A stretch of DNA of 64,000 nt from Thermoplasmata archaeon (GCA_027006785.1 JALTFR010000042.1:30113-94112), one strand, 5' to 3'; positions 3,182 to 62,587 are shown, counted from the first letter of the stretch. The notes: generated from the letters alone by a model not told the origin. Numbers and translations are program-made.

Positions 3182-3182
3182 T

Positions 3183-31467: not shown

Positions 31468-31582
31468 CCATATGCCTCCTCGATCTTTAAATTTCCAGAT
31501 AGACATCTGGAAATACTATATATAGTTTTCTCAGATTACAACTCTATGCGCTCTCCGCTTGTGAAAAATAGCAAAACATATT

Positions 31583-42783: not shown

Positions 42784-43524
42784 TCACTTCGGCGTTATCC
42801 CTCTGTTCGTGACGGAATACTCCATGATGCCCAGCCTCTCAGGATGGTTACGAACCTTCTGAATTATGAGATAATGGATGAAATTCCTGTCCTTTCTCTG
42901 TTTCTCCAGCTCTATTATCGCATCCACGATTTCTTCAACTCCGCTCTCCGTCTTCGGTTCATGCACCCCTTTCAACATGGTCACCAGCACAACACCCCTC
43001 TGATGCTGGCTATGGGCCTTTATCGTTCTAAGGGCCGACATGACCTGCTGAGGATCATAATATTCGAGGAAGAAATCAAGGGAATCTATTATGACTCTGA
43101 AAGGGGGCTTCAGCTTTGATATCTCATAAGTGACCTTCGTGAGAAAATTGACTCCTTTTGATATGTCCTGCTCCCTCAATCTCTTCAGGTCGCGTATGGT
43201 AACTCCTTCCTGACGATAACGACTTATCTCAACCTCCCTTGCAAGGACCTTCTCGTAGTATTCGCCACCTATGTTGACTATGTTAATATTGGGGTCCCAT
43301 CCGAAATGTTCCATTGTCTTTTTGACATCCTCGTCCCGTTCGTTGGTGGTGAAGTATATGACATTCTCCTTTCCCACGCCGGCGGATGCAAACTGCTTGG
43401 CAAAGAGTTCCGTACCCGAACCCGGTGAGCCCTGCACCAGTATCATGAAACCCTCGGGAACTCCACCGAGAAAATTGTCCAGTTCAGGAATTCCTATTGC
43501 TCTGTGACCGGACTCCATTACCAT
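42784..43524 (-). CDS. KaiC/RecA-superfamily ATPase-like protein with degenerate P-loop
   Basis: 'GIPELDNFLGGVPEGFMILVQGSPGSGTELFAKQF' (GxxGxGTE, no Lys); Walker B-like 'RVIIDSLDFF'. Confidence 0.6.
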   Translation of the reverse strand: MVMESGHRAIGIPELDNFLGGVPEGFMILVQGSPGSGTELFAKQFASAGVGKENVIYFTTNERDEDVKKTMEHFGWDPNINIVNIGGEYYEKVLAREVEISRYRQEGVTIRDLKRLREQDISKGVNFLTKVTYEISKLKPPFRVIIDSLDFFLEYYDPQQVMSALRTIKAHSQHQRGVVLVTMLKGVHEPKTESGVEEIVDAIIELEKQRKDRNFIHYLIIQKVRNHPERLGIMEYSVTNRGITPK

Positions 43525-44096
43525 TCCTCCGTTATCTCTATACGCTCATCACATACCATTGTCAGGGCATGGTCTATCTCATCCGAGCTCTGCTCCTTTA
43601 TTGACAACACTATGGTGTATGCATTCTTAGACCTCAGGCTGTTGAAAAGTATGTGCATGAACTCCGAGAGTATCCTTATATTGTTGTGTATGGCAAGAGA
43701 GTTTATGGAATCTATGAATATGAGCTTTCCTCTCTTGGGATCCAGCTTTCTCAGAAGATACTCAACCTTCAGCATTATGTTTTCCAGCATGGTTGCGCTC
43801 TCCACATAGAGCACGTGCCCGTTCGTCGTCTTATTGTCCATGAGAACGCTTGAACCACAATCCACGAAGTATATGTGGTCTCTTTTCATCTCCAGCAGGT
43901 CCATCACATTTATTATGGAGGCAGCCGGAAGGGTAGAATTTATGTATATCACGTCAAGATTCTTCTCTATTGAGACTTTTTCCGTAAGTGTACGAATAAC
44001 ATCGAAATAGCTCTCGGAGCTGACCTCAAGGGCTATGACCGATGCCTCACTTATGCCCTTCATCTTCTCGTATGCCTGATCCATCACTCCCATCAC
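43518..44096 (-). CDS. RecA-fold domain protein lacking a P-loop (DUF835-like), middle gene of the KaiC-like cassette
   Basis: 'KLIFIDSINSLAIHN' Walker-B-like strand, no GK[ST]; 7-nt and 4-nt overlaps with neighbours. Confidence 0.45.
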   Translation of the reverse strand: MMGVMDQAYEKMKGISEASVIALEVSSESYFDVIRTLTEKVSIEKNLDVIYINSTLPAASIINVMDLLEMKRDHIYFVDCGSSVLMDNKTTNGHVLYVESATMLENIMLKVEYLLRKLDPKRGKLIFIDSINSLAIHNNIRILSEFMHILFNSLRSKNAYTIVLSIKEQSSDEIDHALTMVCDERIEITEEW

Positions 44097-44862
44097 TCGC
44101 CACCTCCTTTGAGCATCGGAACAAGAAGGACACCTATCGGTGTGAGATCGAGCACGTATTTTGCACGGGAGTGACTGGTGCCCCTCATCTTGACGACCTG
44201 AAGCGTCCTCAGAAGGTCGCCTCTACGCTCATAGTTTCCCATCAGTATTATACCGTCTGCAATGGCCTCCTCAACACCGTACGTGGAATATCTCGCGTCG
44301 GATGGCAGTATTTCAGAGACAAGAAGGCTCGTACATCCCAGCTGCGAGAGCTTCTTCCCGAGTTTGAGTATGAAATCGCGTATCTTCTCCTCGGTCTTCA
44401 GCTGGAAGCATACAGATGTCACGGAGTCTATGACGAGCCTCTTTATGTTGAGCTCCTTTACGATGTCCCCGAGAGCATTGACAAGAAGGTCGATCTCTTC
44501 AAAGGAGAACTCGGATTTCTGAAGGCCCAGCCGTTCATATATGGCAGGCATATCTATGAATATCAGTTTTCCCTTCTTCAAAAGGTCCTCACTGAAGAAC
44601 TCATAGGGAATAAGGTTTGCAAGAAGCTTTTCTGAGGCCTCTGTTACCGAGACAAAAAGGCAGTTCTCACCGTAGAGAGCTCCGTGGACAAGAAACTCCA
44701 GACTGGTTGTTGTCTTACCCGTACCGCAACTTCCTGTTACAAGTACGGTGTTTCCCCGGGGTATCCCGCCGTTCAAAATTGCGTCGAGAGTGTCTATTCC
44801 TGTGCGGCATCGGGGTCTGTCAGAAGATTTTGCTGAGCCTTTCTTTGCAGTCTCTGAGGTCA
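44093..44862 (-). CDS. KaiC-like RecA-superfamily ATPase (intact Walker A/B)
   Basis: 'GIDTLDAILNGGIPRGNTVLVTGSCGTGKTTTSLEF'; Walker B 'RLVIDSVTSV'; start preferred at 'MTSETAKKG'. The track start 45064 adds an atypical Cys/Phe-rich extension. Confidence 0.65.
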
Positions 44863-45090
44863 TCGCAGGGGTATGAGCGCTACATACATATATCTTTTTT
44901 GCCACAGAACTCGAAAATGACCCTGTGATGTGAAAAGTTGAAAAATAAACAAGATATGTAAAGTAGCTTGAAAAAGTGTGGTTTTTTCGTGTCTGACAAA
45001 AGAAAAACCTTATATACCCATCTTCCATACAAGATGTTGTGCCCGATGAGGGGCTGAAACACAAGATGTGTGATAGACAGAGGTAGATAG

Positions 45091-45556: not shown

Positions 45557-48025
45557 ATGGGACTGGAAAAAGTAAGGAAAAGAGACGGAAGGGTCGTGGA
45601 TTTCGACCAAACGAAGATAACTGAGGCCATAAAGAAGGCATTCATAGCCAAGGGTTATATGCCCGAGACAGCCAACCTGCTGTCTAAGAGCCTTGCGGAC
45701 AAGGTTGTCGGAAAACTTGAGAAGAGGTTTGCAGACGAGATACCTGAGATAGAGGACATTCAGGACCTTGTTGAAGCCACCCTTATAGAAGAGAACTTCA
45801 GCAAGGTCGCAAAAGCATACATATTGTACAGAAAGCAGAGAGAGGATGTGAGGAAGCTCAAGGAAACGATGCTCGAGGTTGATAGAGTAATGGACGGCTA
45901 CCTCGACAGAATAGACTGGAGGGTGAATGAGAACAGCAATTCCGATTACTCTCTTTCAGGGCTCCTGATGCATGCGGCAGGCTCCGTTGTTGCGAACTAT
46001 GTACTCACAAAAGTATATCCGAAGGAGATTGCGGATGCCCACAGGAACGGTGATTTCCACATACACGACCTTTCCATGGGAATAGCCGGTTACTGTGCCG
46101 GATGGAGCCTAAAACAGCTTCTTACAGAGGGTTTCAACGGTGTTGACGGAAAGGTTGCGTCATCTCCGCCAAAACACCTTGAGACAGCGCTCGGCCAGAT
46201 GGTCAATTTCCTCGGAACCCTTCAGAACGAATGGGCGGGTGCAATGGCATTTTCCTCCTTCGACACATATCTCGCACCCTTTGTCAGAGTGGACAACCTG
46301 AATTACAAACAGGTAAAGCAGGCCATACAGCAGTTCGTGTTCAGCCTGAATGTCGCAAGCAGGTGGGGCGGACAGACTCCCTTCACCAACATAACTCTGG
46401 ATTGGGTCGTTCCAGAGGATATGAAGGAAGAACCCGCCATAGTTGGAGGAAAGCTGGCCGACTTCAATTACGGGGATCTTCAGAAGGAAATGGATGTGAT
46501 CAACAAGGCATTCATAGAGGTCATGATGGACGGAGATGCCAACGGCAGACCGTTCACATTCCCGATACCCACATACAATATAACATCGGATTTCGACTGG
46601 GACAGCGAGAACGCCACATTGCTCTTCGATATGACCGCAAAATATGGCCTGCCCTACTTCCAGAACTTCATAAACAGCGACCTCAACCCGGGAGATGTCA
46701 GGTCAATGTGCTGCAGGCTCCAGCTGAACCTGAAGGAACTTAAGGCAAAGACAGGAGGTCTCTTCGGTTCCGGAGAGTGCACGGGTTCCATCGGAGTGGT
46801 GACTCTGAACATGCCCCGGATAGGATACCTTTCAAAGACGAAGGAGGAGTTCTTCGAGAGGATAGCGAAGCTCATGGACCTTGCAAAGGAGTCCCTTGAG
46901 ATAAAGAGAAAGGTTGTCAACCGGAACATGGAAAATGGCCTTCTGCCCTATACCAAGAGATATCTCGGAACGCTGGACAACCACTTTTCCACCATAGGCC
47001 TGGTGGGAATGAACGAAGCCGCACTCAACTTCATGGGTAAGGACATAGGAAGTGAAGAGGGAAGGAAGTTCGCAATAGAGGTGCTGAACTTTATGAGGGA
47101 CAAACTGACACAGTTCCAGGAAGAGACCGGACACATATACAACCTCGAGGCTACGCCTGCAGAGGGAACTTCCTACAGGCTTGCGAGGATTGATAAAGAG
47201 AAGTATCCGGACATCATAACCGCCGGAGAGGACGAGCCATACTATACCAACTCCACCCAGCTTCCAGTGGGATACACGGATGATATCTTCGAGGCCCTCG
47301 ACCTTCAGGATGACCTTCAGAAGCTCTATACCGGCGGAACCGTCCTTCACGGATTCCTCGGCGAAGAACTGGACAATGCGGAGTCCTGCAAGCTCCTTGT
47401 CAGGAGGATAGCGGAGAATTACAGGCTACCATACTACACGATAACACCGACATTCTCCATATGCAAGCAGCACGGATACATACCGGGTGAGCACTTCACC
47501 TGCCCCAAGTGCGGAGAGCCCACAGAGGTCTATTCGAGGGTTGTGGGCTACTTCAGGCCGGTCCAGAACTGGAACAAGGGAAAGAAGGAGGAATTCAAGG
47601 AGAGGCTTGAGTTCAACATAAAGAAGAGGGGCATAAGGCCGCCCGCACAGCATGCCGTTTCTGCACCCAAACCCGCTGAAGAGGGCCCTGCAATGGATAT
47701 AATGAGTTCCTCGTCCCCACAGGCTAGCGGAGAGGTTGCAGCGGAAGTAACGCCCATCTCTGCCGGAATACCTGAGGAGAAGAGTGTTGCAAAGTACATC
47801 TTCTTCTGGGCCGAACACTGCCCCCACTGCCCGGCGGTAAAGATGTATCTGGCGGATAAGGCTGCGGACATCCCGGGAGAACCAGTAAACGTTGACACGG
47901 AAGAAGGCAGGGAACTTGCCCTCAAATACGATATAATTGGCACTCCAACAGTGATACTTCTGGATGAGAGCGGTAATGAGCTGTCAAGGGTCAACAACAT
48001 CGGAGGACTGCGCAAATGGTTGTAA
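45557..48025 (+). CDS. nrdD: Anaerobic (class III) ribonucleoside-triphosphate reductase NrdD with N-terminal ATP-cone and C-terminal CPHC thioredoxin-fold fusion
   Basis: ATP-cone 'KVRKRDGRVVDFDQTKI'; Zn-site 'CPKCG'; glycyl-radical motif 'RVVGYFRPV'; C-terminal 'YIFFWAEHCPHCPAVKMYL...IIGTPTVILLD'. Confidence 0.85.
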   Translation: MGLEKVRKRDGRVVDFDQTKITEAIKKAFIAKGYMPETANLLSKSLADKVVGKLEKRFADEIPEIEDIQDLVEATLIEENFSKVAKAYILYRKQREDVRKLKETMLEVDRVMDGYLDRIDWRVNENSNSDYSLSGLLMHAAGSVVANYVLTKVYPKEIADAHRNGDFHIHDLSMGIAGYCAGWSLKQLLTEGFNGVDGKVASSPPKHLETALGQMVNFLGTLQNEWAGAMAFSSFDTYLAPFVRVDNLNYKQVKQAIQQFVFSLNVASRWGGQTPFTNITLDWVVPEDMKEEPAIVGGKLADFNYGDLQKEMDVINKAFIEVMMDGDANGRPFTFPIPTYNITSDFDWDSENATLLFDMTAKYGLPYFQNFINSDLNPGDVRSMCCRLQLNLKELKAKTGGLFGSGECTGSIGVVTLNMPRIGYLSKTKEEFFERIAKLMDLAKESLEIKRKVVNRNMENGLLPYTKRYLGTLDNHFSTIGLVGMNEAALNFMGKDIGSEEGRKFAIEVLNFMRDKLTQFQEETGHIYNLEATPAEGTSYRLARIDKEKYPDIITAGEDEPYYTNSTQLPVGYTDDIFEALDLQDDLQKLYTGGTVLHGFLGEELDNAESCKLLVRRIAENYRLPYYTITPTFSICKQHGYIPGEHFTCPKCGEPTEVYSRVVGYFRPVQNWNKGKKEEFKERLEFNIKKRGIRPPAQHAVSAPKPAEEGPAMDIMSSSSPQASGEVAAEVTPISAGIPEEKSVAKYIFFWAEHCPHCPAVKMYLADKAADIPGEPVNVDTEEGRELALKYDIIGTPTVILLDESGNELSRVNNIGGLRKWL

Positions 48026-48946: not shown

Positions 48947-49930
48947 ATGATATGTGTGGGCGGGACCTTTGAACACCTCCATGCGGGGCACAGGAAACTC
49001 CTGGAAACGGCATTCTCAATCGGAGGAAAGGTATACATCGGCCTGAGCACCGATGAGTTCGCATCCAAGGGACGGGAAAGGGATGTGCTTCCGTACGAAG
49101 TCAGAAGGAAGAACCTTATGAAGTACCTCGAGAGCATGGGATACGAGGATTATGATATAGAGCCCCTCGACGACAGAGTCGGAAGGTGTCTTGAAAAGGA
49201 GTGCAGCGAACTGGTTGTTTCGGAGGAAACTGAGGCTGTTGCCTCGGAGATAAACAGGACGCGCTCCGCCCTGGGCCTTCCTCAGATGAGAGTGCATGTG
49301 GTGCCCTATGTCCTTGCCGATGATTTCAGGCCCATAAGTTCCACAAGGATACATGCTGGAGAGATAGATGAGGACGGAAGGTTGAAACGCCCGCTCAAAG
49401 TAGCGGTTGGCTCGGTGAATCCAAACAAAGTTGAAGCGGTGAGATCCGTGCTATCCGAGTTCTACGATGATGTGGTCGTGCAGGGCATCGGTGTTGACCC
49501 CGGAGTTCCAGAACAACCGTTCAATGAGGACACGGTGAAAGGGGCGATGAACCGTGCCAGAAAGGCACTGAAAGGATGGGAGGATGCGGACCTGGGGGTC
49601 GGTATAGAGGCAGGGCTCGTTCTGGAAAGGACGACCGGACGGTACTATGATGTGCAGTACTGTGCCATAATGGACAGAACCGGATGGGTCACGGTAGGAC
49701 ATGGACCCGGGTTCTACTATCCGAAGAAGGTCATGTCCAGAGTTAGCGAGGGCATAAGCATAGGGGATGCCATGAAAGTGGCTTACGGTGAGGGGGACAT
49801 AGGATATCGGCAGGGCGCAATCGGTTTCCTCACAAAGGGACATTACGACAGGAAGAGGCTCAGCGAGAACGCCGTTATGATGGCCTTCGTTCCCAGGATA
49901 AAAAAAGAGGATTACAGGGAAGAGGTTTAG
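48947..49930 (+). CDS. Fusion: archaeal-type phosphopantetheine adenylyltransferase (N-terminal) + YjjX/DUF84 non-canonical purine NTPase (C-terminal)
   Basis: N-terminal '[20 protein letters not shown]' (nucleotidyltransferase H.GH); C-terminal '[19 protein letters not shown]...[25 protein letters not shown]' (DUF84 pattern). Confidence 0.6.
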
Positions 49931-51558
49931 AACTCGTCGTTTCCGAAGTCGCCGCCACCTCCGCCCGAGGACTTGCTCTCATTTCCTTTTGCGGCTATGA
50001 CGTCATCTATACGCAGCACCATGGTGGCAACATCGGTCGCAGCGCTTATGGCCTGTCTGTCCACCCTTATCGGCTCGACGACATTGCGCTCCCTCATATC
50101 CACAATATCACCTGTGAATACGTCCAATCCCGCGCTGCGTTTTCCGTCCTTGTGAGCCTTTCTCAGCTTTATGAGTGTGTCGATGACATCCAGTCCCGCA
50201 TTCTCTGCCAGAGCACGGGGTATTCCTTCGAGCGCATCGGCAAATGCCTCTATGGCCATCTGCTCCCTTCCTCCGATGGTGGCTGCATAATCCCTGAGCT
50301 GGAGGGCGATCTCCACTGCGCTGGCACCGCCGCCTGCCACAAGTTTTCCGTCCTCAAGGGCTATCGCAACTGTGTGAAGGGCATCATTTAGGATTCTTTC
50401 CACCTCGTTCACGACATGCTCGCTTCCTCCGCGTATTAGTATGCTCACGGATCTGGGGTTCTTGCATTCCATCACGAATGTCATGTCGTCATCGCCTATC
50501 TTCCTCTCCTCGACGAGGCCTGCATTTCCAAGATCATCCTTGGTTAGCTCGTCCAGACCGGTGACTATATTTGCTCCTGTTGCCCTTGCAAGCTTCTCCA
50601 TATCCGACTTCTTTACCCTGCGAACCGCATATATGCCCTCCTTTGCCATAAAGTGCTGGGCCATGTCGTCTATTCCCTTCTGACAGAATACGACATTGGC
50701 ACCCGTTGCCCTGACCTTCTCGACCATGTCTCTCAGCATCTTCTCTTCCTGGTCTAAGAAGGCCTGTATCTGAGAGGGGTCATTTATGCGTATATTCGCA
50801 TCTATCTCTGTCTTCTTTATTTCCATTGGTGCATTTATAAGTGCTATCCTTGCATTCTTAACGGAAGAGGGCATGCCGGGATGCACCTTCTCTTTGTCAA
50901 GTATTACTCCTTCTATCAGCTCTGTATCGCCTATCGAGCCCCCGTTCTTCTTCTCCACCTTTATGCTGTCCATATCCACCCGATATACCTTTCCGTCCTT
51001 TTCGGCAACGCTCTTGACGGCCTTCACCACAAGCTCTGCCAGATATTTCCTTGTCTCACCCTCTGCGCTCTTTCCTGTCATGGATGTAATCGCTATGCTC
51101 TTCAGTATCTCGTCGTCGCTCAGGTCTATTTCCTGTCCAAGGTCTTCCAGTATCTCGAAGGCCTTTGCGGATGCCATCTGATATCCTCTGGTTATGGTGG
51201 TGGAATGCACGTTCTCTTCGAGAAGTTCCTGTGCTCTGCTTAGAAGTTCACCTGCAAGAACTACGGCCGTTGTCGTTCCGTCACCGCATTCCTGGTCCTG
51301 GGACTTGGCAACCTCGATTATCATCTTTGCTGCAGGATGGACAACATCCATTTCCTTCAGGATGGTAACCCCGTCATTGGTTATTGTCACATCTCCCATA
51401 CTATCAACCAGCATCTTGTCCATCCCTTTCGGACCGAGTGTTGTCCTGACCGCATCCGCTATTGCCTTTGCAGCCTCGATGTTCTTCATCTGAGCGCTCT
51501 TTCCGGATTCCCTTTCCGTTCCTTCCTTCAGGATATATATGGGTGTTCCTCCGAGCAT
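49927..51558 (-). CDS. ths: Thermosome subunit (group II chaperonin)
   Basis: '[12 protein letters not shown]', '[21 protein letters not shown]'; C-terminal Gly-rich tail. Confidence 0.9.
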
Positions 51559-51634: not shown

Positions 51635-51643
51635 TTATAAATA
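51635..51643 (+). promoter_or_regulatory. TATA box (ttataaata-gg) for the pilus ATPase operon
   Basis: About 45 nt upstream of the preferred ATG at 51684; SD gaggtgg between. Confidence 0.4.
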
Positions 51644-51683
51644 GGGATGGAGAATATACCCATCTGCTGAGGTGGCATATTAT

Positions 51684-53363
51684 ATGGCAGAATCAAGCAA
51701 GGTTTCAGAAAAGGATTCGAAGAAATTCGATCTCTTCTCAATAATGGAGCCATTCATACGTAAAACTCCAAAAAAGATAATGATACCCGCAAAGGAGGCG
51801 GAAGAAAAGAGCGACGAGGGTTCCATATACACGAACATACCTCCGATAACGGACCCCAACATAGACATTCTGGAAATAAAGCCCGTTATTGAGGATTTTG
51901 CATATGCCAGAATAATATATGACAATGCCAACAGCGAATACATATATGAAGCCATAGAACCTCAGTTGAATGATAAGGAAAAGGAATACCTGACACTGAT
52001 AAAGGATTCTCTCAGCAAGACAATGGACTACGAGTGGGAGAAACTTGCCGACCATGACAAAAGAGAATACCTTGTGGAGAGCATAGAAAGTTTCATTAAA
52101 AGCCGAAATATAGAACTTCCGGATGTCAGCAGGGAGAAGGTGATGTACTACCTTGTGAGGGATTTCATAGGATACGGTCGAGTTGATATCCTGATGAAAG
52201 ACGACGACATAGAGGATATCTCCTGCGATGGTACCAATATTCCGATATTCATATTCCATAAGAAGTATGAGTCAATAAAAACCACCGTGAAATTCGAAGA
52301 AGACGAGATTCTGGATTCATTTATAATATCCCTCGGGCAGCGCTGCGGAAAGAACATATCCGTGGCAACACCAATTCTAGATGGTACCAGCAAGGAAGGT
52401 CACAGGATTCAGGCCACTTATTCACACGAGGTCACCACCAGAGGCTCGTCCTTCACAATAAGGAGATTCAAAGAGAAGCCCTTCACACCTGTGGAACTCG
52501 TGAAATTCAAAACTGCCTCTCCCGAGATGATAGCTTACCTCTGGATGATGGTTGAAAACGGAAAATCCCTCATCGTCTGCGGAGGCACTGCCTGTGGAAA
52601 GACCGCAACCCTCAACGCTATAAGTCTGTTCATACCTCCTGGAGCGAAGATAGTCACCATGGAGGATACCCGGGAGATAAACCTGCCGCATGAGAACTGG
52701 ATACCCGGTGCAACAAGGAGCGGTGTGGGGGAAAGAGGTGCCGATGGAAAGGCCGCGGGTGAGATTGATATGTACGACCTTGTGAGGGCAGCATTGAGGC
52801 AGAGGCCGAACTACATCATAGTCGGAGAGGTCAGAGGTAAGGAAACATACACCATGTTCCAGGCCATGGCAACGGGCCATACCACATATACCACCATGCA
52901 CGCCGATTCCGTAAAATCCATGGTTCACAGGCTTGAGAACCCACCTATCAATACGCCAAGAATACTTCTTACCGCCCTCAATCTCGTCATAATCCAGAGT
53001 TTTGCCAGACTTAAGGATCAGCAGGTTAGGAGAATAAAAGAGATTGTTGAAATAGTCGGCTTCGAGGCGGAGACCAATGAACTCGTAACAAATCAGGTCT
53101 ATGCTTGGAATCAGATAACGGATAGCTTTATATATAAGGGTCATAGCTTTATACTGGATGCGATTATGGAAATGAAGAATATGACACACGAGGATATGCA
53201 GAATGAGATGGACAGGAGAACCGAGGTTATCGAATATATGGTAAAAAAGGACATAACGGATTACAGGGAGATTGCTAAGATAATCACTGCTTATTACAAA
53301 GACCCCGAAGAGACGATAGACCGTATTAGAGAAGAACTTGCGGAGGAAGAGAATGAGTCCTGA
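51684..53363 (+). CDS. FlaI/TadA/GspE-family secretion ATPase (pilus/archaellum-type), paralog 1
   Basis: Walker A 'CGGTACGKTATLNA'; 'IIVGEVRGKETY'; His-box 'TTMHADS'. Confidence 0.8.
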   Translation: MAESSKVSEKDSKKFDLFSIMEPFIRKTPKKIMIPAKEAEEKSDEGSIYTNIPPITDPNIDILEIKPVIEDFAYARIIYDNANSEYIYEAIEPQLNDKEKEYLTLIKDSLSKTMDYEWEKLADHDKREYLVESIESFIKSRNIELPDVSREKVMYYLVRDFIGYGRVDILMKDDDIEDISCDGTNIPIFIFHKKYESIKTTVKFEEDEILDSFIISLGQRCGKNISVATPILDGTSKEGHRIQATYSHEVTTRGSSFTIRRFKEKPFTPVELVKFKTASPEMIAYLWMMVENGKSLIVCGGTACGKTATLNAISLFIPPGAKIVTMEDTREINLPHENWIPGATRSGVGERGADGKAAGEIDMYDLVRAALRQRPNYIIVGEVRGKETYTMFQAMATGHTTYTTMHADSVKSMVHRLENPPINTPRILLTALNLVIIQSFARLKDQQVRRIKEIVEIVGFEAETNELVTNQVYAWNQITDSFIYKGHSFILDAIMEMKNMTHEDMQNEMDRRTEVIEYMVKKDITDYREIAKIITAYYKDPEETIDRIREELAEEENES

Positions 53364-54369
53364 AGTGAGCGATGCGTTCAAAGGCCTTGATACGAAGAAA
53401 TGGAGCCTTTTCCACACCAAAAGAGTGAAGACAGGCGACGTAATAGAGGGTTATGGGCCACATATAGTCTATCTGCCAAAAGAGGCTGTTCCGAGCCAGA
53501 TAAAGCTCACTCCATTTCAGCAGACCGCTCTGAGGATAATGGGAAAAAAGGCGGAGAAAGAGGTGGAAAAATACCCTGATCTGGATGAATGGCTGGTAAA
53601 GGCAAGGATGAGGATGAGGGCGGAGGAATACATTGCGTACGTGCTTCTGACAACATATCTAATGTGGGCAATAGCCGGTGTCCTTGCTATCATCTTCATA
53701 GCGCTCTACAGCGTAATTGGAGTTCTTTCGATAATGATTGCTATTATAATGATAATGATCGCTTTCATGATCAAACCTCTCATGCTTTCGATGCCTAAAT
53801 CGAAGGCAAAGTCCAGGGGCAGGAACATAGATAAAAAACTGGCATCCGCAATGTCATTCGTCGCATCACTGGCATCCGCCGATGTCAACGTTGATGTCAT
53901 ATTCAAGGAACTGGCAAAACAACCAATATATGGAGAGATTCAAAAAGAGGCCGAATGGATAACGAGAGACACAGAACTTCTTGGCATAGATATTCTAAAT
54001 GCCATAAAGGAAGGAGCAAGAAGAAGCCCCTCGGTAAAATGGCAGGACTTCCTTCAGGGAGTGGTTACCACATCCACGTCAGGCGGACAGCTGAAACCGT
54101 ACTTCATAGTCAAACTGCAGGAATTCGAGAAGGACAGCCAGCTTGATAACAAGAGAAGGACTGAAACTCTGGGAATGATGGCAGAATCGTATGTCACCGT
54201 GGTCGTTGCGTTCCCACTGTTCCTTATAGTTATCATCGCTATCATGGCGATAACCAACGGACAGGCCGAATCCAGCATACCTATGCTGTATGCGGTGGAT
54301 GCCCTTATGATACCTGGCTCGCAGGGTGTGTTCATTTACATCATGTGGGGTCTTACACAGGAGGCTTGA
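53353..54369 (+). CDS. Single-T2SSF-domain platform protein (TadB/EpdJ-like half of FlaJ)
   Basis: TM segments plus T2SSF domain 'LASAMSFVASLASADVNVDVIFKELAKQ...LNAIKEGARRSPSVKWQDFLQGV'. Confidence 0.65.
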   Translation: MSPEVSDAFKGLDTKKWSLFHTKRVKTGDVIEGYGPHIVYLPKEAVPSQIKLTPFQQTALRIMGKKAEKEVEKYPDLDEWLVKARMRMRAEEYIAYVLLTTYLMWAIAGVLAIIFIALYSVIGVLSIMIAIIMIMIAFMIKPLMLSMPKSKAKSRGRNIDKKLASAMSFVASLASADVNVDVIFKELAKQPIYGEIQKEAEWITRDTELLGIDILNAIKEGARRSPSVKWQDFLQGVVTTSTSGGQLKPYFIVKLQEFEKDSQLDNKRRTETLGMMAESYVTVVVAFPLFLIVIIAIMAITNGQAESSIPMLYAVDALMIPGSQGVFIYIMWGLTQEA

Positions 54370-54370
54370 A

Positions 54371-55288
54371 ATGGCAGAAGACAGTTTCGATCTGGAAAAA
54401 GCGAAGAAAACCGCAAAAAACATCCTCTACATCTCCTTGGCCATAGCCATGATATTCATAGTGGTGGGTCTCCTAGAAACGATAGGTGCAGTTGATATAC
54501 CCCCATTCTCAGCATTCGATTACTTCATATTCGCAATAATGACGATCATGGGCCCTTATGGAATCTATAAGGGAAAGATAGACAAGACCATAGATGAGAT
54601 CGAGAAGAGGCTCCCGGACTTCCTGAGGGATGTCGCAGAGGCTGGAAGGTTCGGTATGACCCTGGCGGACGCCATAGTGGTCGCAGCATCCGGAAGATAT
54701 GGGAAATTGACTCCCGAGATAAAGAAGATGGCCGCACAGATTCAGTGGGGTGTTCCTGCAACACAGGCGCTCAAGCTCTTTGCGGACAGAATAGATACCC
54801 CTCTTGTCAGAAGGGTCACCACGATAGTCATAAAGTCCTCGGACGCAGGAGGTAATGTGGCAGATGTCCTTTCAATGGTCTCCCACAGCGTCAAAGAGGT
54901 CCACCATGCAAAAGAGGAGTTAAGCATAGAGATGGTGACATATCTGGCGGTCATTTACATAGCTTTCATGGTCTTCATAGCCACCATACTCATCCTTGAC
55001 CTGACATTCCTGCCTCAGATGGAACAGGCAGGAGAGGCTCTTTCGGGTTCTGGTGACATAGGTGGTGGGGCAGGTTCAGTTACACTGATACAGTCCCAGT
55101 ACATACCCGAGATAGAATTCATATTCACCCTTACGATCATGATACATGGTGTCGGTGATGGGCTGGTAGCTGGAATCCTCTATAAAGGAAAGATATCTGA
55201 GGGAATGAAACATGCATTCATAATGGTCTTCATAGGGTTCATCACATTCAGGATTCTCTTTGGAGGCATAGGAGTATTAGGAGGTTGA
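54371..55288 (+). CDS. Single-T2SSF-domain platform protein (TadC/EpdK-like half of FlaJ)
   Basis: ATG 1 nt after the previous stop with SD caggagg; 'FLRDVAEAGRFGMTLADAIVVAASG...WGVPATQALKLFADRIDTPLVRRV'. Confidence 0.65.
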   Translation: MAEDSFDLEKAKKTAKNILYISLAIAMIFIVVGLLETIGAVDIPPFSAFDYFIFAIMTIMGPYGIYKGKIDKTIDEIEKRLPDFLRDVAEAGRFGMTLADAIVVAASGRYGKLTPEIKKMAAQIQWGVPATQALKLFADRIDTPLVRRVTTIVIKSSDAGGNVADVLSMVSHSVKEVHHAKEELSIEMVTYLAVIYIAFMVFIATILILDLTFLPQMEQAGEALSGSGDIGGGAGSVTLIQSQYIPEIEFIFTLTIMIHGVGDGLVAGILYKGKISEGMKHAFIMVFIGFITFRILFGGIGVLGG

Positions 55289-55292
55289 TTAG

Positions 55293-56960
55293 ATGTCAGG
55301 AACAGAGGTTAAAGAGAAGAAGGGAGAAATGCCTGCGCCAGGGTTCAAAGAGCGGGTGGTCTCCTTTGCCATAGGAAAGACCCCGGTCAAGATAATGCTT
55401 CCAAAAGAGAAGACATCCAGAGACCTTTCAAAGGAGATTACTCTGATACCCAAAATCGTGGACATGCATGTGAATGAGATTGAGATAGAACCCGTTGAAG
55501 AACCGTACTCTTATGTGAGAATAAAGTATGATACGATTTCCAACGAGTACCTATATGAGGTCATAGAACCCCAGTTGAATGACGATGAAGAGGAAGTTCT
55601 GATAGCTGTGAGAAAGATTCTTGTTGACCGCTTCTCACTTGTTGACAAGGAAGAAATGGACAAGAGGGAAGATATTCTCAGAGAGATGACAGAAGATGCC
55701 ATAGATGAGACAGGGATAGAGCTCAGCGAGGTTTCACGTGAAAGGATTTTCTACTACATAAAAAGGGATTTCCTCGGCTTCGGCGCCATACATGTTCCCA
55801 TGATAGAGAAACAGGTCGAGGATATATCCTGCGACGGTGTGAACATCCCAATATACATCTACCACAGGAAGTACGGCTCCATAAAGTCGAACATAAAGTT
55901 CGAGAGCGCTGAAGAACTGGATAATTTCGTTGTGTGGCTGGCACAGAGGTCCGGAAAACACATCTCGGTTGCAAGCCCGATGCTGGATGCGACCATGCCG
56001 GATGGCTCCAGACTTAACGAAACACTTGGAACCCATGTTACAAAGAGAGGCTCTTCCTTCACAATAAGGCGTTTCAAAGAGGACCCGTTCACTCCGATAG
56101 ACCTCATAAGATTCAAGACAATGAGCTCGGAGATGATGGCTTATCTCTGGATCGCCATAGAGAACGGGCAGTCCATGCTCATATGTGGAGGTACTGCGTC
56201 TGGTAAGACCACCACGCTGAACGCAGTCCTTCTGTTCATTCCTCCTCAGATGAAGATTGTAAGTATAGAAGATACAAGAGAACTCAACCTTCCGCATGAA
56301 AACTGGGTTCCGACCCTTACGAGGAGCGGTTTCGGCGCAAAGAATACAGTAACGGGAAAAGCGGCTGGAGAGATAGATATGTTCGACCTTCTGGCTGCAG
56401 CATTGAGGCAGAGGCCACAGTATATGATGGTCGGAGAGGTTCGAGGTGCCGAGGCATATGTGGTCTTTCAGGCAATGGCAACGGGAAAGAGCGCGTACAC
56501 CACATTCCACGCAGAGGATGTTCAGGCAATGGTGCACAGGCTTGAAAATGACCCGATAAACCTGCCAAGGTCGCTCATAGCAGCTCTGGATATCGTTCTT
56601 CTGCAGGGACAGGTGAAGGTCGGAAAGAACATGACGAGGAGGGTTAAAGGACTTATAGAGATAGTCGGAACCGACCCTCAGACAGACGAACTGATAACAA
56701 ACAACGCATACATGTGGAACCCTGCAGACGACACATTTAACTACAGCGGACACAGCTATGTGTATGAAAAGGTCGCACTTTCCAAGAACTGGTCTGCCAG
56801 AGAGATGGAACGCGAAGTGAAAAGGAGAAAGGACATCCTGGATTACATGAGGAAGATTGAGGTCAGCAACTACAGAGAGGTCGCCCGCATAGTCTCCGCA
56901 TACTACAAGGACAAGAAGAAGGTCATGGAAGAGGTCAGAAGGGTGCTCGAAGAGGAATGA
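55293..56960 (+). CDS. FlaI/TadA/GspE-family secretion ATPase, paralog 2
   Basis: Walker A 'CGGTASGKTTTLNA'; 'MVGEVRGAEAY'; 'TTFHAED'; same domain order as paralog 1. Confidence 0.8.
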   Translation: MSGTEVKEKKGEMPAPGFKERVVSFAIGKTPVKIMLPKEKTSRDLSKEITLIPKIVDMHVNEIEIEPVEEPYSYVRIKYDTISNEYLYEVIEPQLNDDEEEVLIAVRKILVDRFSLVDKEEMDKREDILREMTEDAIDETGIELSEVSRERIFYYIKRDFLGFGAIHVPMIEKQVEDISCDGVNIPIYIYHRKYGSIKSNIKFESAEELDNFVVWLAQRSGKHISVASPMLDATMPDGSRLNETLGTHVTKRGSSFTIRRFKEDPFTPIDLIRFKTMSSEMMAYLWIAIENGQSMLICGGTASGKTTTLNAVLLFIPPQMKIVSIEDTRELNLPHENWVPTLTRSGFGAKNTVTGKAAGEIDMFDLLAAALRQRPQYMMVGEVRGAEAYVVFQAMATGKSAYTTFHAEDVQAMVHRLENDPINLPRSLIAALDIVLLQGQVKVGKNMTRRVKGLIEIVGTDPQTDELITNNAYMWNPADDTFNYSGHSYVYEKVALSKNWSAREMEREVKRRKDILDYMRKIEVSNYREVARIVSAYYKDKKKVMEEVRRVLEEE

Positions 56961-56961
56961 A

Positions 56962-59067
56962 TTGAGACTCGCCGATATTGTAGACAGAGAAATAGCGGAC
57001 ATATTCGCAGAGGAAGGGATAGATGAGCTATATGATACGCAGGTATCGCCGCTTATGGCCGTGCAGAGTGGGAAAAGCGTCGTTGTGGCATACCCGACAG
57101 CCAGCGGTAAATCTCTGATAGCGTATGCAGGTGCTCTTCGCTCAGTTCTTAACGGAAAAAAGGCCCTGTATATGGTCCCTTTGAGAGCTCTCGCATCGGA
57201 AAAATACGAAGACCTTATGAGCTTCCGGAAGATCGGTGTCAGGGTTGGCATAAGCACGGGAGATTACGACAGAAGGGATGAGAGGCTGGGCAGGAACGAC
57301 ATAATCATAGCCACATCCGAGAAGATAGACTCTCTTATACGACATAAAGCAGGGTGGATGAGCGAGATAGGTACGATAATAGCAGATGAGGTCCACCTGA
57401 TTAACGATGCTAGCCGCGGGCCGACCATGGAGGTCACGCTCTCCAAACTGAGAAAACTGAATCCGGAATCTCAGGTCATCGCTCTCTCGGCAACCATAAG
57501 CAACTCGGATGATATCGCGGAGTGGCTGAACGCAGAGCATTTCAGAAGCGAGTGGAGGCCTGTTTCCCTTAGAAAAGGAATATATTATGACAGAAGCATA
57601 TCCTTCACGGATGGAGAGGAAAGGGGGCTCGGAAGGGCAGGGGTTGAGGGAATCGTATCCGATGCCCTGAAACGCGGTGGTCAGGCCCTCGTTTTCGTAT
57701 CCACACGAAGATACACGGAATCTCAGGCTGAAAAGCTGATTGATATTGCACGCAGCCATCTCGGGCCTCTGGATACCTCGGAGATTGCTGACCTCGGAGA
57801 TGACAGGACCGCAGACAGACTTTTAAAATGCCTGAAAGGAAGGGTTGCCTTTCACCATGCCGGGCTCTCATCGTTGCAGAGAAAGACCGTGGAGTCTCTC
57901 TTTAAAGAGCGAAAGATAGCGGTGATAGTTGCGACACCCACACTTGCAGCCGGAATAAACCTGCCTGCAAAGACCGTGGTGGTGAGAGATACCAAGAGAT
58001 ACGATATATCCGGATACGGGTGGATGGATCTGCCTGTCATGGAGGTGGAACAGATGCTCGGAAGGGCTGGAAGGCCGAAATACGATAAAGAGGGAGAGGG
58101 AGTGATAGTGGCGAAGACGAAGGAGGATGTCGAAAGGATACAGGAGAGGTATCTAGAAGGGGACAGCGAGCCTGTGAGGTCCGCACTCGGTTCCGAGGAG
58201 TCCCTGAGAACGCATACTCTGGCACTGATATCCACCTTCGGCATATCCTCCGAGGATGAGCTGTATGAATTCTATTCCTCAACATTCTACGGAAAACAGA
58301 ACGATGTCCGCAGCCTTGAAAGGAGCATATGGAGGGTTCTTCAATTCTTATTTGACAACGACCTGATTGAGATGGGCAGCGGAGAGCTCAGGCCCACGGA
58401 TTTCGGGATACGAACATCGGAGACATACATAGACCCGATGAGCGCCGTCATAATAAGAAAGGCCCTTGAGAGCCCTGATGAGATAAGCGATTTCGGATAC
58501 CTGCATACAATCGGCCTGACCCCCGACATGTACACGTTATATCCGAAGAAAAAGGAGGAGAAGACGGTATACGGGCTCATAGAGAGCGATGGATATGAGA
58601 CCCCGATAAGCCCTTACGATGTCAGGGAGGCGCTCTATGTCGGCGCTTTCAAGGTTGCTCTTGTCCTCAATGACTGGATAGACGAGGTTCCGGAAAAGAG
58701 GATTACGGAAGACTGGTCAATATATCCTGGAGACCTCGCATCAAGGGTGGAACTGGCAGAATGGCTCATAACATCCGCAAGGGAGCTTTCAAGGCTCTTC
58801 CGCCCCGAAGATACTCACAGGCTGTCCGTTCTTGGAGAGAGGATACACCACGGGGTTAGGCCGGATGTGCTCAACATGATGAAACTTGAAGGCATCGGAA
58901 GGACCAGAGGGAGAGCGCTCTACAGAGCAGGATTCCGCAGCATATCGGAGCTTGCGAGGGCAAGCGAAGATGAGCTCATGGCGGTTCCCGGAATCGGCGA
59001 GGCACTGGCAAAGAGGATAAAGAAACAGGTTGGTGGCAATACATACCGGGCGTACTGGGAAGTTTAA
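56962..59067 (+). CDS. hel308: Hel308/Hjm Ski2-like DNA helicase
   Basis: Walker A 'AYPTASGKSLIA'; 'IIADEVHLIND'; C-terminal HhH 'GIGRTRGRALYRAGFRSISELA'. Confidence 0.85.
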   Translation: MRLADIVDREIADIFAEEGIDELYDTQVSPLMAVQSGKSVVVAYPTASGKSLIAYAGALRSVLNGKKALYMVPLRALASEKYEDLMSFRKIGVRVGISTGDYDRRDERLGRNDIIIATSEKIDSLIRHKAGWMSEIGTIIADEVHLINDASRGPTMEVTLSKLRKLNPESQVIALSATISNSDDIAEWLNAEHFRSEWRPVSLRKGIYYDRSISFTDGEERGLGRAGVEGIVSDALKRGGQALVFVSTRRYTESQAEKLIDIARSHLGPLDTSEIADLGDDRTADRLLKCLKGRVAFHHAGLSSLQRKTVESLFKERKIAVIVATPTLAAGINLPAKTVVVRDTKRYDISGYGWMDLPVMEVEQMLGRAGRPKYDKEGEGVIVAKTKEDVERIQERYLEGDSEPVRSALGSEESLRTHTLALISTFGISSEDELYEFYSSTFYGKQNDVRSLERSIWRVLQFLFDNDLIEMGSGELRPTDFGIRTSETYIDPMSAVIIRKALESPDEISDFGYLHTIGLTPDMYTLYPKKKEEKTVYGLIESDGYETPISPYDVREALYVGAFKVALVLNDWIDEVPEKRITEDWSIYPGDLASRVELAEWLITSARELSRLFRPEDTHRLSVLGERIHHGVRPDVLNMMKLEGIGRTRGRALYRAGFRSISELARASEDELMAVPGIGEALAKRIKKQVGGNTYRAYWEV

Positions 59068-60697: not shown

Positions 60698-62587
60698 ATG
60701 AAAAAACGCTTTCTCGTTGCAACTATGGCCATAGTTTTCGCGGCCATGCAGATATCCATGCTCGGAGCAGGTGTTGCCAGTGCTGATACACAGGTTAACG
60801 GAGGATATACCGAATGTGATACGACCCTTCAGATGATACCTATGACACATACGATAGGTGGAGGGACCATACACTGGCATATCACCGGAGAGAATGCAAA
60901 GGAACTCCGAACGCTCATACTGGAAAGACTTGACAATGCCAGTATAAATTATGAAGGAAGGCTTCTGCTTCCCAATGACACTGCAGCCGGTAGAAAACAG
61001 GGAGTGATAGATGAGGCCGAAGTATGGGCCTATGTTGCAGCTGGAGATCATTCTTTCCTTCAGAACTATCTTCAGGGAATACAGAAGATGTGGGTGAATA
61101 ACCAAACAGGTGTCTTTGAGATGAATCCCTCCGGAGATAATTACAAAAGCATAATGTTCCATGGTGTGGATATAACGAGGGCGTCCCTCTCGAATAACAG
61201 AATGTATGTGGATACGAGCGGACTTCTGAACCAGGGTGTGGACTCCACTGCAGATATTGACATCTTCATGACAATAAGCATGAAGGACACCGTAAGGGTC
61301 AATGACATAGACCTGTCCAATCCGGCAGTGCTCGAGGCTCCTTTCAGATGCCTCACAGCCTTCGACAGGAATGGGGATGCCATTGATACAGTTAATTATC
61401 ATGGGGACGGAAGTATGCAGCACTGGACAATCAGTGTTGGGTTTGACAGCTTCTACAATCCAGAGATTAGAACAGGTAAACTCTATCTGATTCGGACTCC
61501 TGCCGGCGAATTATACAGGTATCAGGGAAATGTTCAGGACGGTTCCATCATACAGGAGAGTATGCAGCACAGTGATTTCAACCCTGTTGAGAACCCCCAG
61601 ATACTCTTCATAATCATGATGGTCTTCGGCTATCTTACGGTTGCTCTACCCGGTCATTTCTATCTGAAATACAGGAGCAAATACCCCAAAAAACACCGGA
61701 GCGAGGCGAAGAAACTTAAGGGTGTTCACTGGACCGCAAGGATATTCCTGCTGCTCCTGATACTCCTCTATTTCTGGCCTGTTCTCGGTACTTTCTACCT
61801 GACGGGAGCGATGTACATCGGACTGAGTGTGGGATTCGTAATAATCTCCGGAGCCGTCGGAAAGTTCGCATATGAACGTGCGGAAAATGCCATACCTCCG
61901 GAGTATTTCGAGAAAAAGGAGAAGAAAAAAGTGCGTACATTTGCCCCGGTTGCCCCTCTCAGCGATGACCTGGAGGCCGAACCGTACATATCGGATACCG
62001 AAAAGATACACTGCATCCGCTGCGGAGCACTCATAACCATAAAGAACGGTGAAAACCTCCTTAAGGTCAAATGTCCGGTCTGCGGAGCACTTCAGAAAAA
62101 GGTTGAAAGGGGATACAACCACCTTATACTAGACAGCAACCTGACCAACACCTACAATATGTTCGCTGACTTCCTCAGGGATGGAGATACCGCACTCTGC
62201 ATGAGCACAACAATGCCCGGTAAACTCAAAAGAAACTACGGACTGTCGGGCAAACTTAAGTGCGTATGGCTGACCTCAGCAGGTGGGAAGGACACTCTGG
62301 ATCCGGGAGACATAAATAAGATTGCAGAGACCGTTGAACGGTTTGCAGAGAAATTCCCGGCATCACTGGTTCTCTTCGATGGACTCGAGTATATGGTTGT
62401 TGACCACGGCTTTGACGCGGCATCGAGATTCCTGAAGAGAATCACAGACGTGGCCTCCATGAAGGATATCACTCTCCTCGTTCCGATAAATCCTGCATCT
62501 CTGACAGAAGAGGAGCTCACGGCGCTCAAGGCCATATTCGACAGGGTCGAAGCGCTGGAGGATATAGATGAAAGGGAATTCTTCTGA
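60698..62587 (+). CDS. Receptor-like membrane protein: secreted N-terminal domain, TM block, cytoplasmic zinc ribbon + DUF835/degenerate KaiC-like domain
   Basis: Signal peptide 'MKKRFLVATMAIVFAAMQISMLGAGVASA'; TMs about aa 300-390; 'CIRCGAL...CPVCGAL'; C-terminal 'LVLFDGLEYMVVDHGF...ITLLVPINPASLTEEELTALK'. Confidence 0.5.
   Translation: MKKRFLVATMAIVFAAMQISMLGAGVASADTQVNGGYTECDTTLQMIPMTHTIGGGTIHWHITGENAKELRTLILERLDNASINYEGRLLLPNDTAAGRKQGVIDEAEVWAYVAAGDHSFLQNYLQGIQKMWVNNQTGVFEMNPSGDNYKSIMFHGVDITRASLSNNRMYVDTSGLLNQGVDSTADIDIFMTISMKDTVRVNDIDLSNPAVLEAPFRCLTAFDRNGDAIDTVNYHGDGSMQHWTISVGFDSFYNPEIRTGKLYLIRTPAGELYRYQGNVQDGSIIQESMQHSDFNPVENPQILFIIMMVFGYLTVALPGHFYLKYRSKYPKKHRSEAKKLKGVHWTARIFLLLLILLYFWPVLGTFYLTGAMYIGLSVGFVIISGAVGKFAYERAENAIPPEYFEKKEKKKVRTFAPVAPLSDDLEAEPYISDTEKIHCIRCGALITIKNGENLLKVKCPVCGALQKKVERGYNHLILDSNLTNTYNMFADFLRDGDTALCMSTTMPGKLKRNYGLSGKLKCVWLTSAGGKDTLDPGDINKIAETVERFAEKFPASLVLFDGLEYMVVDHGFDAASRFLKRITDVASMKDITLLVPINPASLTEEELTALKAIFDRVEALEDIDEREFF

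Follow-up and report, generated by a model that had tools for sequence, protein, structure and literature searches.

The four-gene locus at positions 51684-56960 of the Thermoplasmata archaeon DNA analyzed here (GCA_027006785.1, JALTFR010000042.1:30113-94112, a stretch of 64,000 nucleotides (nt) hereafter called the window) is an ordinary copy of a type IV pilus (T4P) machinery already described in Cuniculiplasma (2025). It encodes a secretion ATPase (A1), two one-domain platform proteins (F1 and F2) and a second secretion ATPase (A2), and by sequence comparison it is the gene-for-gene orthologue of the machinery E1-Fa-Fb-E2 of the CdiP pilus of Cuniculiplasma divulgatum. On balance, we favor the reading that the locus is the cytoplasmic and membrane core of an adhesive CdiP-type T4P of Thermoplasmatota, which would work with two motors and receive its pilins and prepilin peptidase in trans. 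The survey presented here adds that the order A1-F1-F2-A2 is standard in a sample made up almost entirely of Thermoplasmatota, whereas "unique" and an "outlier" were the terms used for the pair of ATPases in 2025 (PMC12448462), and that the two ATPases form two orthologous and clearly asymmetric lineages, A2 being the conservative and A1 the derived one.

The preliminary description of this DNA had proposed a four-gene operon of the type ATPase-platform-platform-ATPase, and the four genes were indeed found tightly packed on the forward strand:

51684..53363, + strand: ATPase A1, 559 amino acids (aa); GspE/FlaI-family secretion ATPase, derived paralogue, orthologue of CdiPE1
53353..54369, + strand: platform half F1, 338 aa; one T2SSF domain; equivalent to the N-terminal half of FlaJ/PilC and orthologue of CdiPFa
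54371..55288, + strand: platform half F2, 305 aa; one T2SSF domain; equivalent to the C-terminal half of FlaJ/PilC and orthologue of CdiPFb
55293..56960, + strand: ATPase A2, 555 aa; GspE/FlaI-family secretion ATPase, conservative (ancestral-like) paralogue, orthologue of CdiPE2

As read from the sequence, the stop codon of A1 (53363) and the ATG of F1 (53353) overlap by 11 nt, the stop of F1 (54369) and the ATG of F2 (54371) are separated by a 1-nt spacer with a GGAGG located 7 nt upstream of the ATG, and the stop of F2 (55288) and the ATG of A2 (55293) by a 4-nt spacer, again with GGAGG upstream of A2. In fact, all junctions among the four genes are overlaps or gaps of no more than 11 nt, both in the window and in its relatives. 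The 1-nt and 11-nt junctions had been reported before, but the 4-nt junction of F2 and A2 had been left out, as had the start of a Hel308-like helicase gene 1 nt past A2.

The CdiP machinery operon of C. divulgatum has two ATPases, CdiPE1 and CdiPE2, with the pilin genes located ~500 kb away; it has been assigned to abundant adhesive pili, and no twitching was observed in this organism (ISME J 2025, PMC12448462). Using the CdiPFa and CdiPFb reference sequence from the supplement of that paper, the CdiPFa part matched F1 with 34.6% identity (E = 4e-38) and the CdiPFb part matched F2 with 32% identity (E = 8e-36); a Cuniculiplasma-like Fa was 36% identical to F1. One Cuniculiplasma-like contig, L087, whose Fa is 88% identical to the published CdiPFa, carries the order ATPase(525)-T2SSF(324)-T2SSF(284)-ATPase(529) with no adjacent pilin. 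Its E1 has A1 as best match (422 vs. 374 bits) and its E2 has A2 (427 vs. 370 bits), such that E1/E2 and the A1/A2 of the window are reciprocal best matches, and E1 also bears the A1 motif described below. It is on the Fa and Fb matches, the gene order of L087, the best matches of its ATPases and the E1 motif that the orthology is based, and because the orthologous machinery is assigned to adhesive pili in C. divulgatum, a CdiP-type pilus is our preferred reading; by analogy, we infer that pili are produced in this organism and that they serve adhesion. In the same contig, a pair of Ta1207-family genes is found upstream of the machinery operon in divergent orientation (L087:4526-6484, minus strand).

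The platform is genuinely split into two one-domain genes, as had been described, since F1 and F2 contain a single T2SSF domain each (Pfam; E = 1.7e-10 and 3.5e-16, respectively) and cover two halves of the NCBIfam ArlJ/FlaJ model, F1 positions 4-225 and F2 positions 262-542 of its 555. The two proteins are thus colinear N and C halves of one platform, arranged N then C as in the unsplit FlaJ. A split caused by a sequencing frameshift was ruled out, as the same two-gene arrangement is kept in all relatives; the earlier statement that the F1/F2 junction is clean, with a Shine-Dalgarno sequence and no frameshift, agrees with the 1-nt spacer, the GGAGG and the recurrence of the split in every related locus examined. 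One-domain platform genes of Epd-like and Tad systems have been attributed to fission (Denise 2019, PMC6668835).

Both ATPases have T2SSE and PilB3_C domains (Pfam; T2SSE E = 6.5e-36 in A1 and 6.8e-32 in A2), with a weak match to PilB3_N in A2, and they are 52% identical over 523 residues (49-52% as overall range). The Walker A (GGTA[CS]GKT), Asp box (EDTRE), Walker B (VGEVRG) and His box (T[MF]HA) motifs are all present and intact, in A1 as G300-GTACGKT307, E327-DTRE331, G381-E382, and H406, and in A2 as G299-GTASGKT306, E326-DTRE330, G381-E382, and H406, so that the presence of two full-length ATPases with intact Walker motifs can be maintained. Judging from these motifs, A1 and A2 both look catalytically competent; that one of them is catalytically dead was ruled out, since every motif is intact in both copies, here and across the two ATPase clades described below.

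Regarding their family, A1 and A2 scored 434 and 437 bits against Archaeoglobus fulgidus GspE (afGspE; 2OAP), 288 and 303 bits against FlaI, 138-151 bits against CpaF structures and about 30-41 bits against PilT structures. With family models, the scores of A1 and A2 were 140 and 145 bits for TadA (TIGR03819, cut-off 373), 430 and 436 bits for the FlaI/ArlI equivalog (NF058587, cut-off 550), and the two ATPases gave 46.5 and 37.4 bits for PilT (TIGR01420, cut-off 319); matches to the bindosome BasE and BasF models reached 184-212 and 28-58 bits, with cut-offs of 1000 and 1300. Because afGspE gives the highest scores and PilB3_C is present in both, the two ATPases appear to belong, by scores and domain matches, with the afGspE/PilB3-type ATPases of euryarchaeal clade-2 pili. 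An archaellum remnant, a bindosome (Bas) and a Ups pilus were discarded as identities of the locus, with scores far under the family cut-offs; for the archaellum, in addition to the missed equivalog cut-off, the Pfam scans found no archaellin or Arl accessory gene in the window. Neither ATPase falls in the PilT/PilU family (37-46 bits vs. 319).

A phylogeny of the ATPases, which the preliminary description had suggested, was run with FlaI and afGspE as references: a neighbor-joining tree built from 520 aligned columns of 132 ATPases (100 bootstrap replicates) and rooted on Sulfolobus acidocaldarius FlaI. A1 and A2 fell into separate clades (n = 57 and n = 56), each with a bootstrap of 100 and apart from afGspE. 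The two clades, together with L042 and the L046 pair, form one group at 68% support, with the single-ATPase systems and afGspE left outside it. A1 and A2 are thus seen as old paralogues whose duplication lies within the archaea.

The two paralogues have not diverged alike. There are 13 columns that are at least 90% conserved inside each paralogue but differ between them, and the state of the single-ATPase relatives is shared by A2 at 9 of the 13 and by A1 at only one; moreover, all outgroup ATPases, afGspE and FlaI included, scored 50-199 bits higher on a hidden Markov model (HMM) of the A2 clade than on that of the A1 clade. On account of these outgroup states and scores, A2 is the conservative, ancestral-like copy and A1 the derived one, though A1 sits at the ancestral 5' position. 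The most visible difference is a motif that in A1 reads D233-G-T-x-x-E-G-H-R241 (D233-G-T-S-K-E-G-H-R241 in the window) and in A2, afGspE (D200...R208) and FlaI reads D-A-[TS]-x-P-D-G-S-R, the A2 of the window carrying the ancestral D-A-T-M-P-D-G-S-R. The invariant A1 substitutions G234, E238, and H240 surround the conserved R241, counterpart of R208 in afGspE, which together with R227 we take to contact the nucleotide from the N-terminal domain. Should R208 and R227 indeed have this role, the coupling between ATP binding and domain closure would be different in A1.

It had been suggested for this locus that the ATPases are an extension/retraction pair, an idea that found no support in the sequences, as neither of them is PilT-like, nor in C. 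divulgatum, where twitching is not seen. According to this explanation, A2 would polymerize the pilus and A1 would be a dedicated depolymerizer, an analogue of the PilB/PilT pair evolved independently from a duplicated assembly ATPase. Bacterial two-motor systems do work in this manner, throughout the phylum a single operon retains a pair of active-looking ATPases, and A1 is the derived copy with its invariant G234, E238, and H240 around R241. However, besides their low PilT scores, both ATPases keep full N-terminal domains, C. divulgatum with both of them adheres but does not twitch (PMC12448462), and single ATPases such as CpaF do both jobs, such that no second motor is required (PMC12019362); we therefore regard a retraction motor as unlikely. 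The same doubt extends to the broader idea that Thermoplasmatota independently evolved a two-motor T4P in which A1, after the ancient duplication, would have taken over retraction, or the switching of direction, at the split platform, and in which A1 might dock on one platform half and A2 on the other. If true, such an independent two-motor pilus would overturn the view of archaeal T4P, which are otherwise regarded, and in current reviews treated, as single-motor systems (PMC12019362).

To see how far the arrangement extends, we looked at its distribution. A1 homologues number in the thousands, the closest named ones coming from Thermoplasmata or Methanomassiliicoccales metagenome-assembled genomes (MAGs) with ~67% identity. 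With one genome taken per GTDB species, 78 loci were returned, and the A1-F1-F2-A2 cassette was found in at least 51 of these 78 species-level genomes, nearly all of them labelled Thermoplasmatota, Methanomassiliicoccales and DHVE2 included. The two-ATPase cassette is therefore, on these gene orders, the standard layout across Thermoplasmatota and not a trait unique to one species. The remark that two ATPases in one operon are unusual thus remains valid for archaea in general but not for Thermoplasmatota, in which they are the rule and have been published for C. divulgatum (PMC12448462). In at least 51 relatives the cassette is accompanied by a pilin-like gene, PIL: 41 loci are clean PIL-A1-F1-F2-A2, another 6 have equal content allowing for splitting or ordering of open reading frames (ORFs), and 4 (Saliniplasma and relatives) show the order A1-F1-F2-A2-PIL.

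Several natural variants depart from this layout. L058 and L062 are PIL-F1-F2-A2, with no A1; L039 has an orphan A1, and in L061 A1 lies 6 kb from A2-F2-F1. In L046, a Thermoplasmatales MAG, the order is PIL-A1-A2-F1-F2 and the A1 motif is intermediate (DGTLPEGSR). A single ATPase followed by F1 and F2 occurs in 9 loci, 6 of them from Methanoregula, other Methanomicrobiales and Methanolobus, and 3 from Thermoplasmatota MAGs (L065, L073, and L075), with truncated or duplicated versions of the single-ATPase type in L083 (Methanoculleus) and in L068, L071, and L076 (Thermoplasmata). The two ATPases of L076 stand in tandem and are both of the single-ATPase type.

Over 49 genomes, the mean pairwise identities of A1 (0.642) and A2 (0.661) show both copies to be under similar constraint, and the two diverge in close parallel from genome to genome (r = 0.95). 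These observations, with all catalytic motifs present in both proteins and the ATPase genes flanking the platform genes in translational coupling that favors near-equimolar synthesis, would agree with an obligate mixed ring in which A1 and A2 form one heterohexamer, for example with alternating subunits, as the only functional motor, the roles being split within the ring. On the other hand, a shared phylogeny would by itself produce such a correlation of rates, and platform loci with A2 only (L058 and L062) and A1 found alone or apart (L039 and L061) do exist; an obligate mixed ring seems to us a rather doubtful proposition.

PIL encodes a protein of ~300 aa whose class III signal peptide and hydrophobic N-terminus are strongly conserved (...R-x-x-G followed by VASTVGTIMALLVFL...YVPVWM..NE); two representatives match Pfam DUF7289 weakly, near the family cut-off. 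By its description, it fits arCOG02911, which would make it the signature minor pilin of euryarchaeal clade-2 pili, a protein of 250-550 aa with a class III signal peptide and an all-beta structure (Makarova 2016, PMC4858521). The window has no such gene beside the cassette, and neither do the other members of its own clade, L084 (89% identity) and L085/L086 (82%), which share the synteny NrdDG-DUF2116-CTP transferase-(thermosome)-A1-F1-F2-A2-Hel308-isochorismatase-PCNA. Since L084-L086 share this synteny and are also without PIL, its absence in cis is a feature of the clade and not an accident of assembly; this clade has lost the cis-encoded minor-pilin-like gene.

The previously noted absence of pilin, prepilin peptidase and archaellin genes from the 64 kb was borne out by every search made. 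Pfam scans of essentially every sizeable ORF of the window gave no Peptidase_A24, pilin or archaellin, and none in or next to the operon for a TadZ/FlaH-type secondary ATPase, Flp-like short pilins or a dedicated peptidase; what they identified elsewhere in the window were housekeeping genes (gyrase, CysRS, NrdD/G, thermosome, PCNA, FtsZ and ribosomal proteins), a defence-like island, KaiC-like ATPases and two giant surface proteins. Tblastn of the window with the pilin-like neighbors of related loci and with the CdiPB pilin found no match. As a class III signal-peptide scan recovered only 30 of 64 known pilin-like neighbors (47%), it was replaced by a profile HMM and a start-independent motif scan: the HMM, built from 54 pilin-like neighbors, found nothing in the six-frame translation of the window (best E = 1.4), the clade-2 signature minor pilin included, and the GxGDxK motif of A24 peptidases was not present in the window.

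A locus with no pilin in cis, lacking the DUF7289 pilin-like gene of the other loci and with weak matches to the BasE/BasF models, could be imagined to power something other than a pilus, for instance protein secretion, DNA uptake or a surface assembly resembling the bindosome. We consider this very improbable, as the BasE/BasF scores (184-212 and 28-58 bits) fall far short of the 1000 and 1300 that these models demand, the organism with the orthologous operon is piliated, and the operons of most relatives include a pilin-like gene with a class III signal. The remote location of the pilins, here and in C. divulgatum, also bears on the proposal that A1 and A2 are interchangeable motors for one F1/F2 platform, each used for different pilin sets or conditions; it has been argued that an archaeal ATPase/TadC module can serve more than one pilin set in trans and that modules which are paralogues may differ in their use (Makarova 2016, PMC4858521). 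However, differential transcription is unlikely within one tightly coupled operon, and the expression of the machinery shows no growth-phase difference in C. divulgatum (PMC12448462), which makes such an exchange of motors quite improbable.

In the CdiP-type pilus that we favor, F1 and F2, as fission halves, would rebuild one PilC/FlaJ platform unit in the membrane, on which the two hexameric ATPases would dock from the cytoplasm, using ATP hydrolysis to extract pilin subunits from the membrane and add them to the filament as it grows. The genes for the prepilin peptidase, for a small major pilin of the CdiPB/PilA-like kind and probably for a DUF7289-type minor pilin would lie at other places in the genome. 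In this scheme, assembly is probably driven by A2 as the canonical motor, and A1 is most likely a specialized partner on the same platform, whether it alternates with A2 as a second motor or joins it in a mixed ring. Several points weigh against this proposal. The sisterhood of A1 and A2 within the phylum has only 68% support in the neighbor-joining tree; no pilin or peptidase is tied to this genome, the data being 64 kb; the A2-only loci and the separate or lone A1 copies indicate that A1 is not strictly needed in cis; the roles of A1 and A2 are inference only; and the CdiP filament has itself been connected to its machinery operon through homology and expression, not through knockouts (PMC12448462). 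Nevertheless, the defined residues and the natural variants at hand (A2-only loci, orphan A1, and tandem A1-A2) offer a way into the question of what an archaeal pilus needs a second motor for.

The surroundings of the operon contain the following features, upstream signals being read from the sequence and protein domains taken from Pfam:

662-3181, + strand: McrB-like AAA_5 and EVE-domain protein
3138-4541, + strand: 467-aa protein with no Pfam match, adjoining the McrB-like gene
5150-6877, + strand: AAA_15/AAA_21 ATPase
11576-17437, + strand: giant secreted/anchored protein of 1953 aa, with NosD/beta-helix, seven Big_5 matches and CopC
23269-31506, - strand: giant secreted/anchored protein of 2745 aa, with Big_5, FixG_C, CarboxypepD_reg and other immunoglobulin-like domains
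42784-45064, - strand: KaiC-family genes, three in a row, located 6.6 kb upstream of the pilus genes; DUF7504/DUF7090 in one of them
45557-48025, + strand: NrdD, anaerobic ribonucleotide reductase of 822 aa, with a C-terminal extension bearing a CPHC motif
49927-51558, - strand: thermosome gene, divergent from A1 across a 125-bp intergenic region that holds TTATAAATA and GAGGTGG
51635..51643, + strand: TATA-box-like TTATAAATA, 41 nt upstream of the A1 start codon
51669..51675, + strand: Shine-Dalgarno-like GAGGTGG, 8 nt upstream of the A1 ATG
56962..59067, + strand: Hel308-like helicase gene (DEAD, Helicase_C, Helicase_dom4_arc) with a TTG start, after a 1-nt spacer from the A2 stop
60698-62587, + strand: protein of 629 aa: signal peptide, large extracellular portion, membrane segments, a CxxC...CxxC stretch resembling a zinc ribbon, and DUF835/DUF7504 at the C-terminus

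The sequence TTATAAATA is the putative archaeal promoter of the pilus operon. Because GAGGTGG sits 8 nt upstream, the ATG at 51684 and not the GTG at 51672 was taken as the start of A1, and the resulting 559-aa product is identical to the database protein P0001. The Hel308-like gene is probably co-transcribed with the operon but stands outside the pilus machinery; its position next to A2 is kept only in the window's own clade (L084-L086), and it was not beside the cassette in any of the 78 other genomes. KaiC-like ATPases have been proposed as pilus regulators in a passage of PMC4858521, and the KaiC gene arrangement of the window is kept in its closest relative, L084, as is the 629-aa DUF835/DUF7504 protein. 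However, the KaiC-like genes, the DUF835 protein, Hel308 and the giant surface proteins were all rejected as parts of the system, since they co-occur with the cassette in no more than 2 of the 78 other genomes. The two giant proteins are probably cell-surface proteins or adhesins. Giant CARDB-domain proteins (1510-1611 aa) with zinc-ribbon matches lie just downstream of the cassette in L003:15554-21788 and L004:16840-21372 (Methanomassiliicoccales/Thermoplasmata), and it is possible that they are surface proteins tied to the pilus locus there. The C-terminal extension of NrdD, which in L084 gives a weak Thioredoxin match, appears to be a fused redox partner. Finally, the segment 662-6877 (+) has a low guanine-plus-cytosine content (0.38-0.41 vs. 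about 0.48-0.50 elsewhere in the window) and looks like a small defence island, possibly acquired horizontally.

When set beside known systems, the locus resembles the bacterial type IVa pilus with PilB and PilT in having two hexameric ATPases of the same superfamily for one platform, but both ATPases of the window are paralogues of the assembly type (GspE/FlaI-like) and neither is of the PilT family. With the Tad (TadA/CpaF, TadB, and TadC) and Epd (EpdJ, EpdK, and EpdL) systems, which also build adhesive pili, it shares two platform genes with one T2SSF domain each. The Tad order is tadA-tadB-tadC, with the C-half-like tadB before the N-half-like tadC, whereas the halves in the window run N then C. 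Its ATPases are not of the TadA/CpaF type either (138-151 bits against CpaF and 140-145 vs. 373 with TIGR03819), as also seen from their PilB3_C domain, and the Tad and Epd systems have a single motor ATPase plus a TadZ/FlaH-type partner (PMC6668835), unlike the two motors of the window. The label "Tad/Epd-like" given to the locus before thus holds for the two one-domain platform genes but not for the ATPases or the order of the halves; it is a resemblance of architecture and not family membership.

The euryarchaeal clade-2 T4P, of the PilB3/PilC3 type of Haloferax volcanii, are closer, afGspE being the nearest ATPase (434/437 bits) and PilB3_C being present. Two tadC-like genes are common in clade-2 loci, Aciduliprofundum boonei has two ATPases in one locus, and clade-2 pilins can be supplied in trans (Makarova 2016, PMC4858521); in our sample, the DHVE2 genomes L026 and L028 (Aciduliprofundum group) have the same cassette, as PIL-A1-F1-F2-A2. 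Most clade-2 loci, however, have a single ATPase, and their signature minor pilin (arCOG02911-like, DUF7289) is missing from the window. The closest counterpart is the CdiP system, with two full-length ATPases, a split platform, the order ATPase-Fa-Fb-ATPase and pilin genes that are not adjacent; it differs in that the identity is only 33-43%, the host of the window belongs to another lineage of Thermoplasmatota, and a Hel308-like gene abuts A2 in the window.

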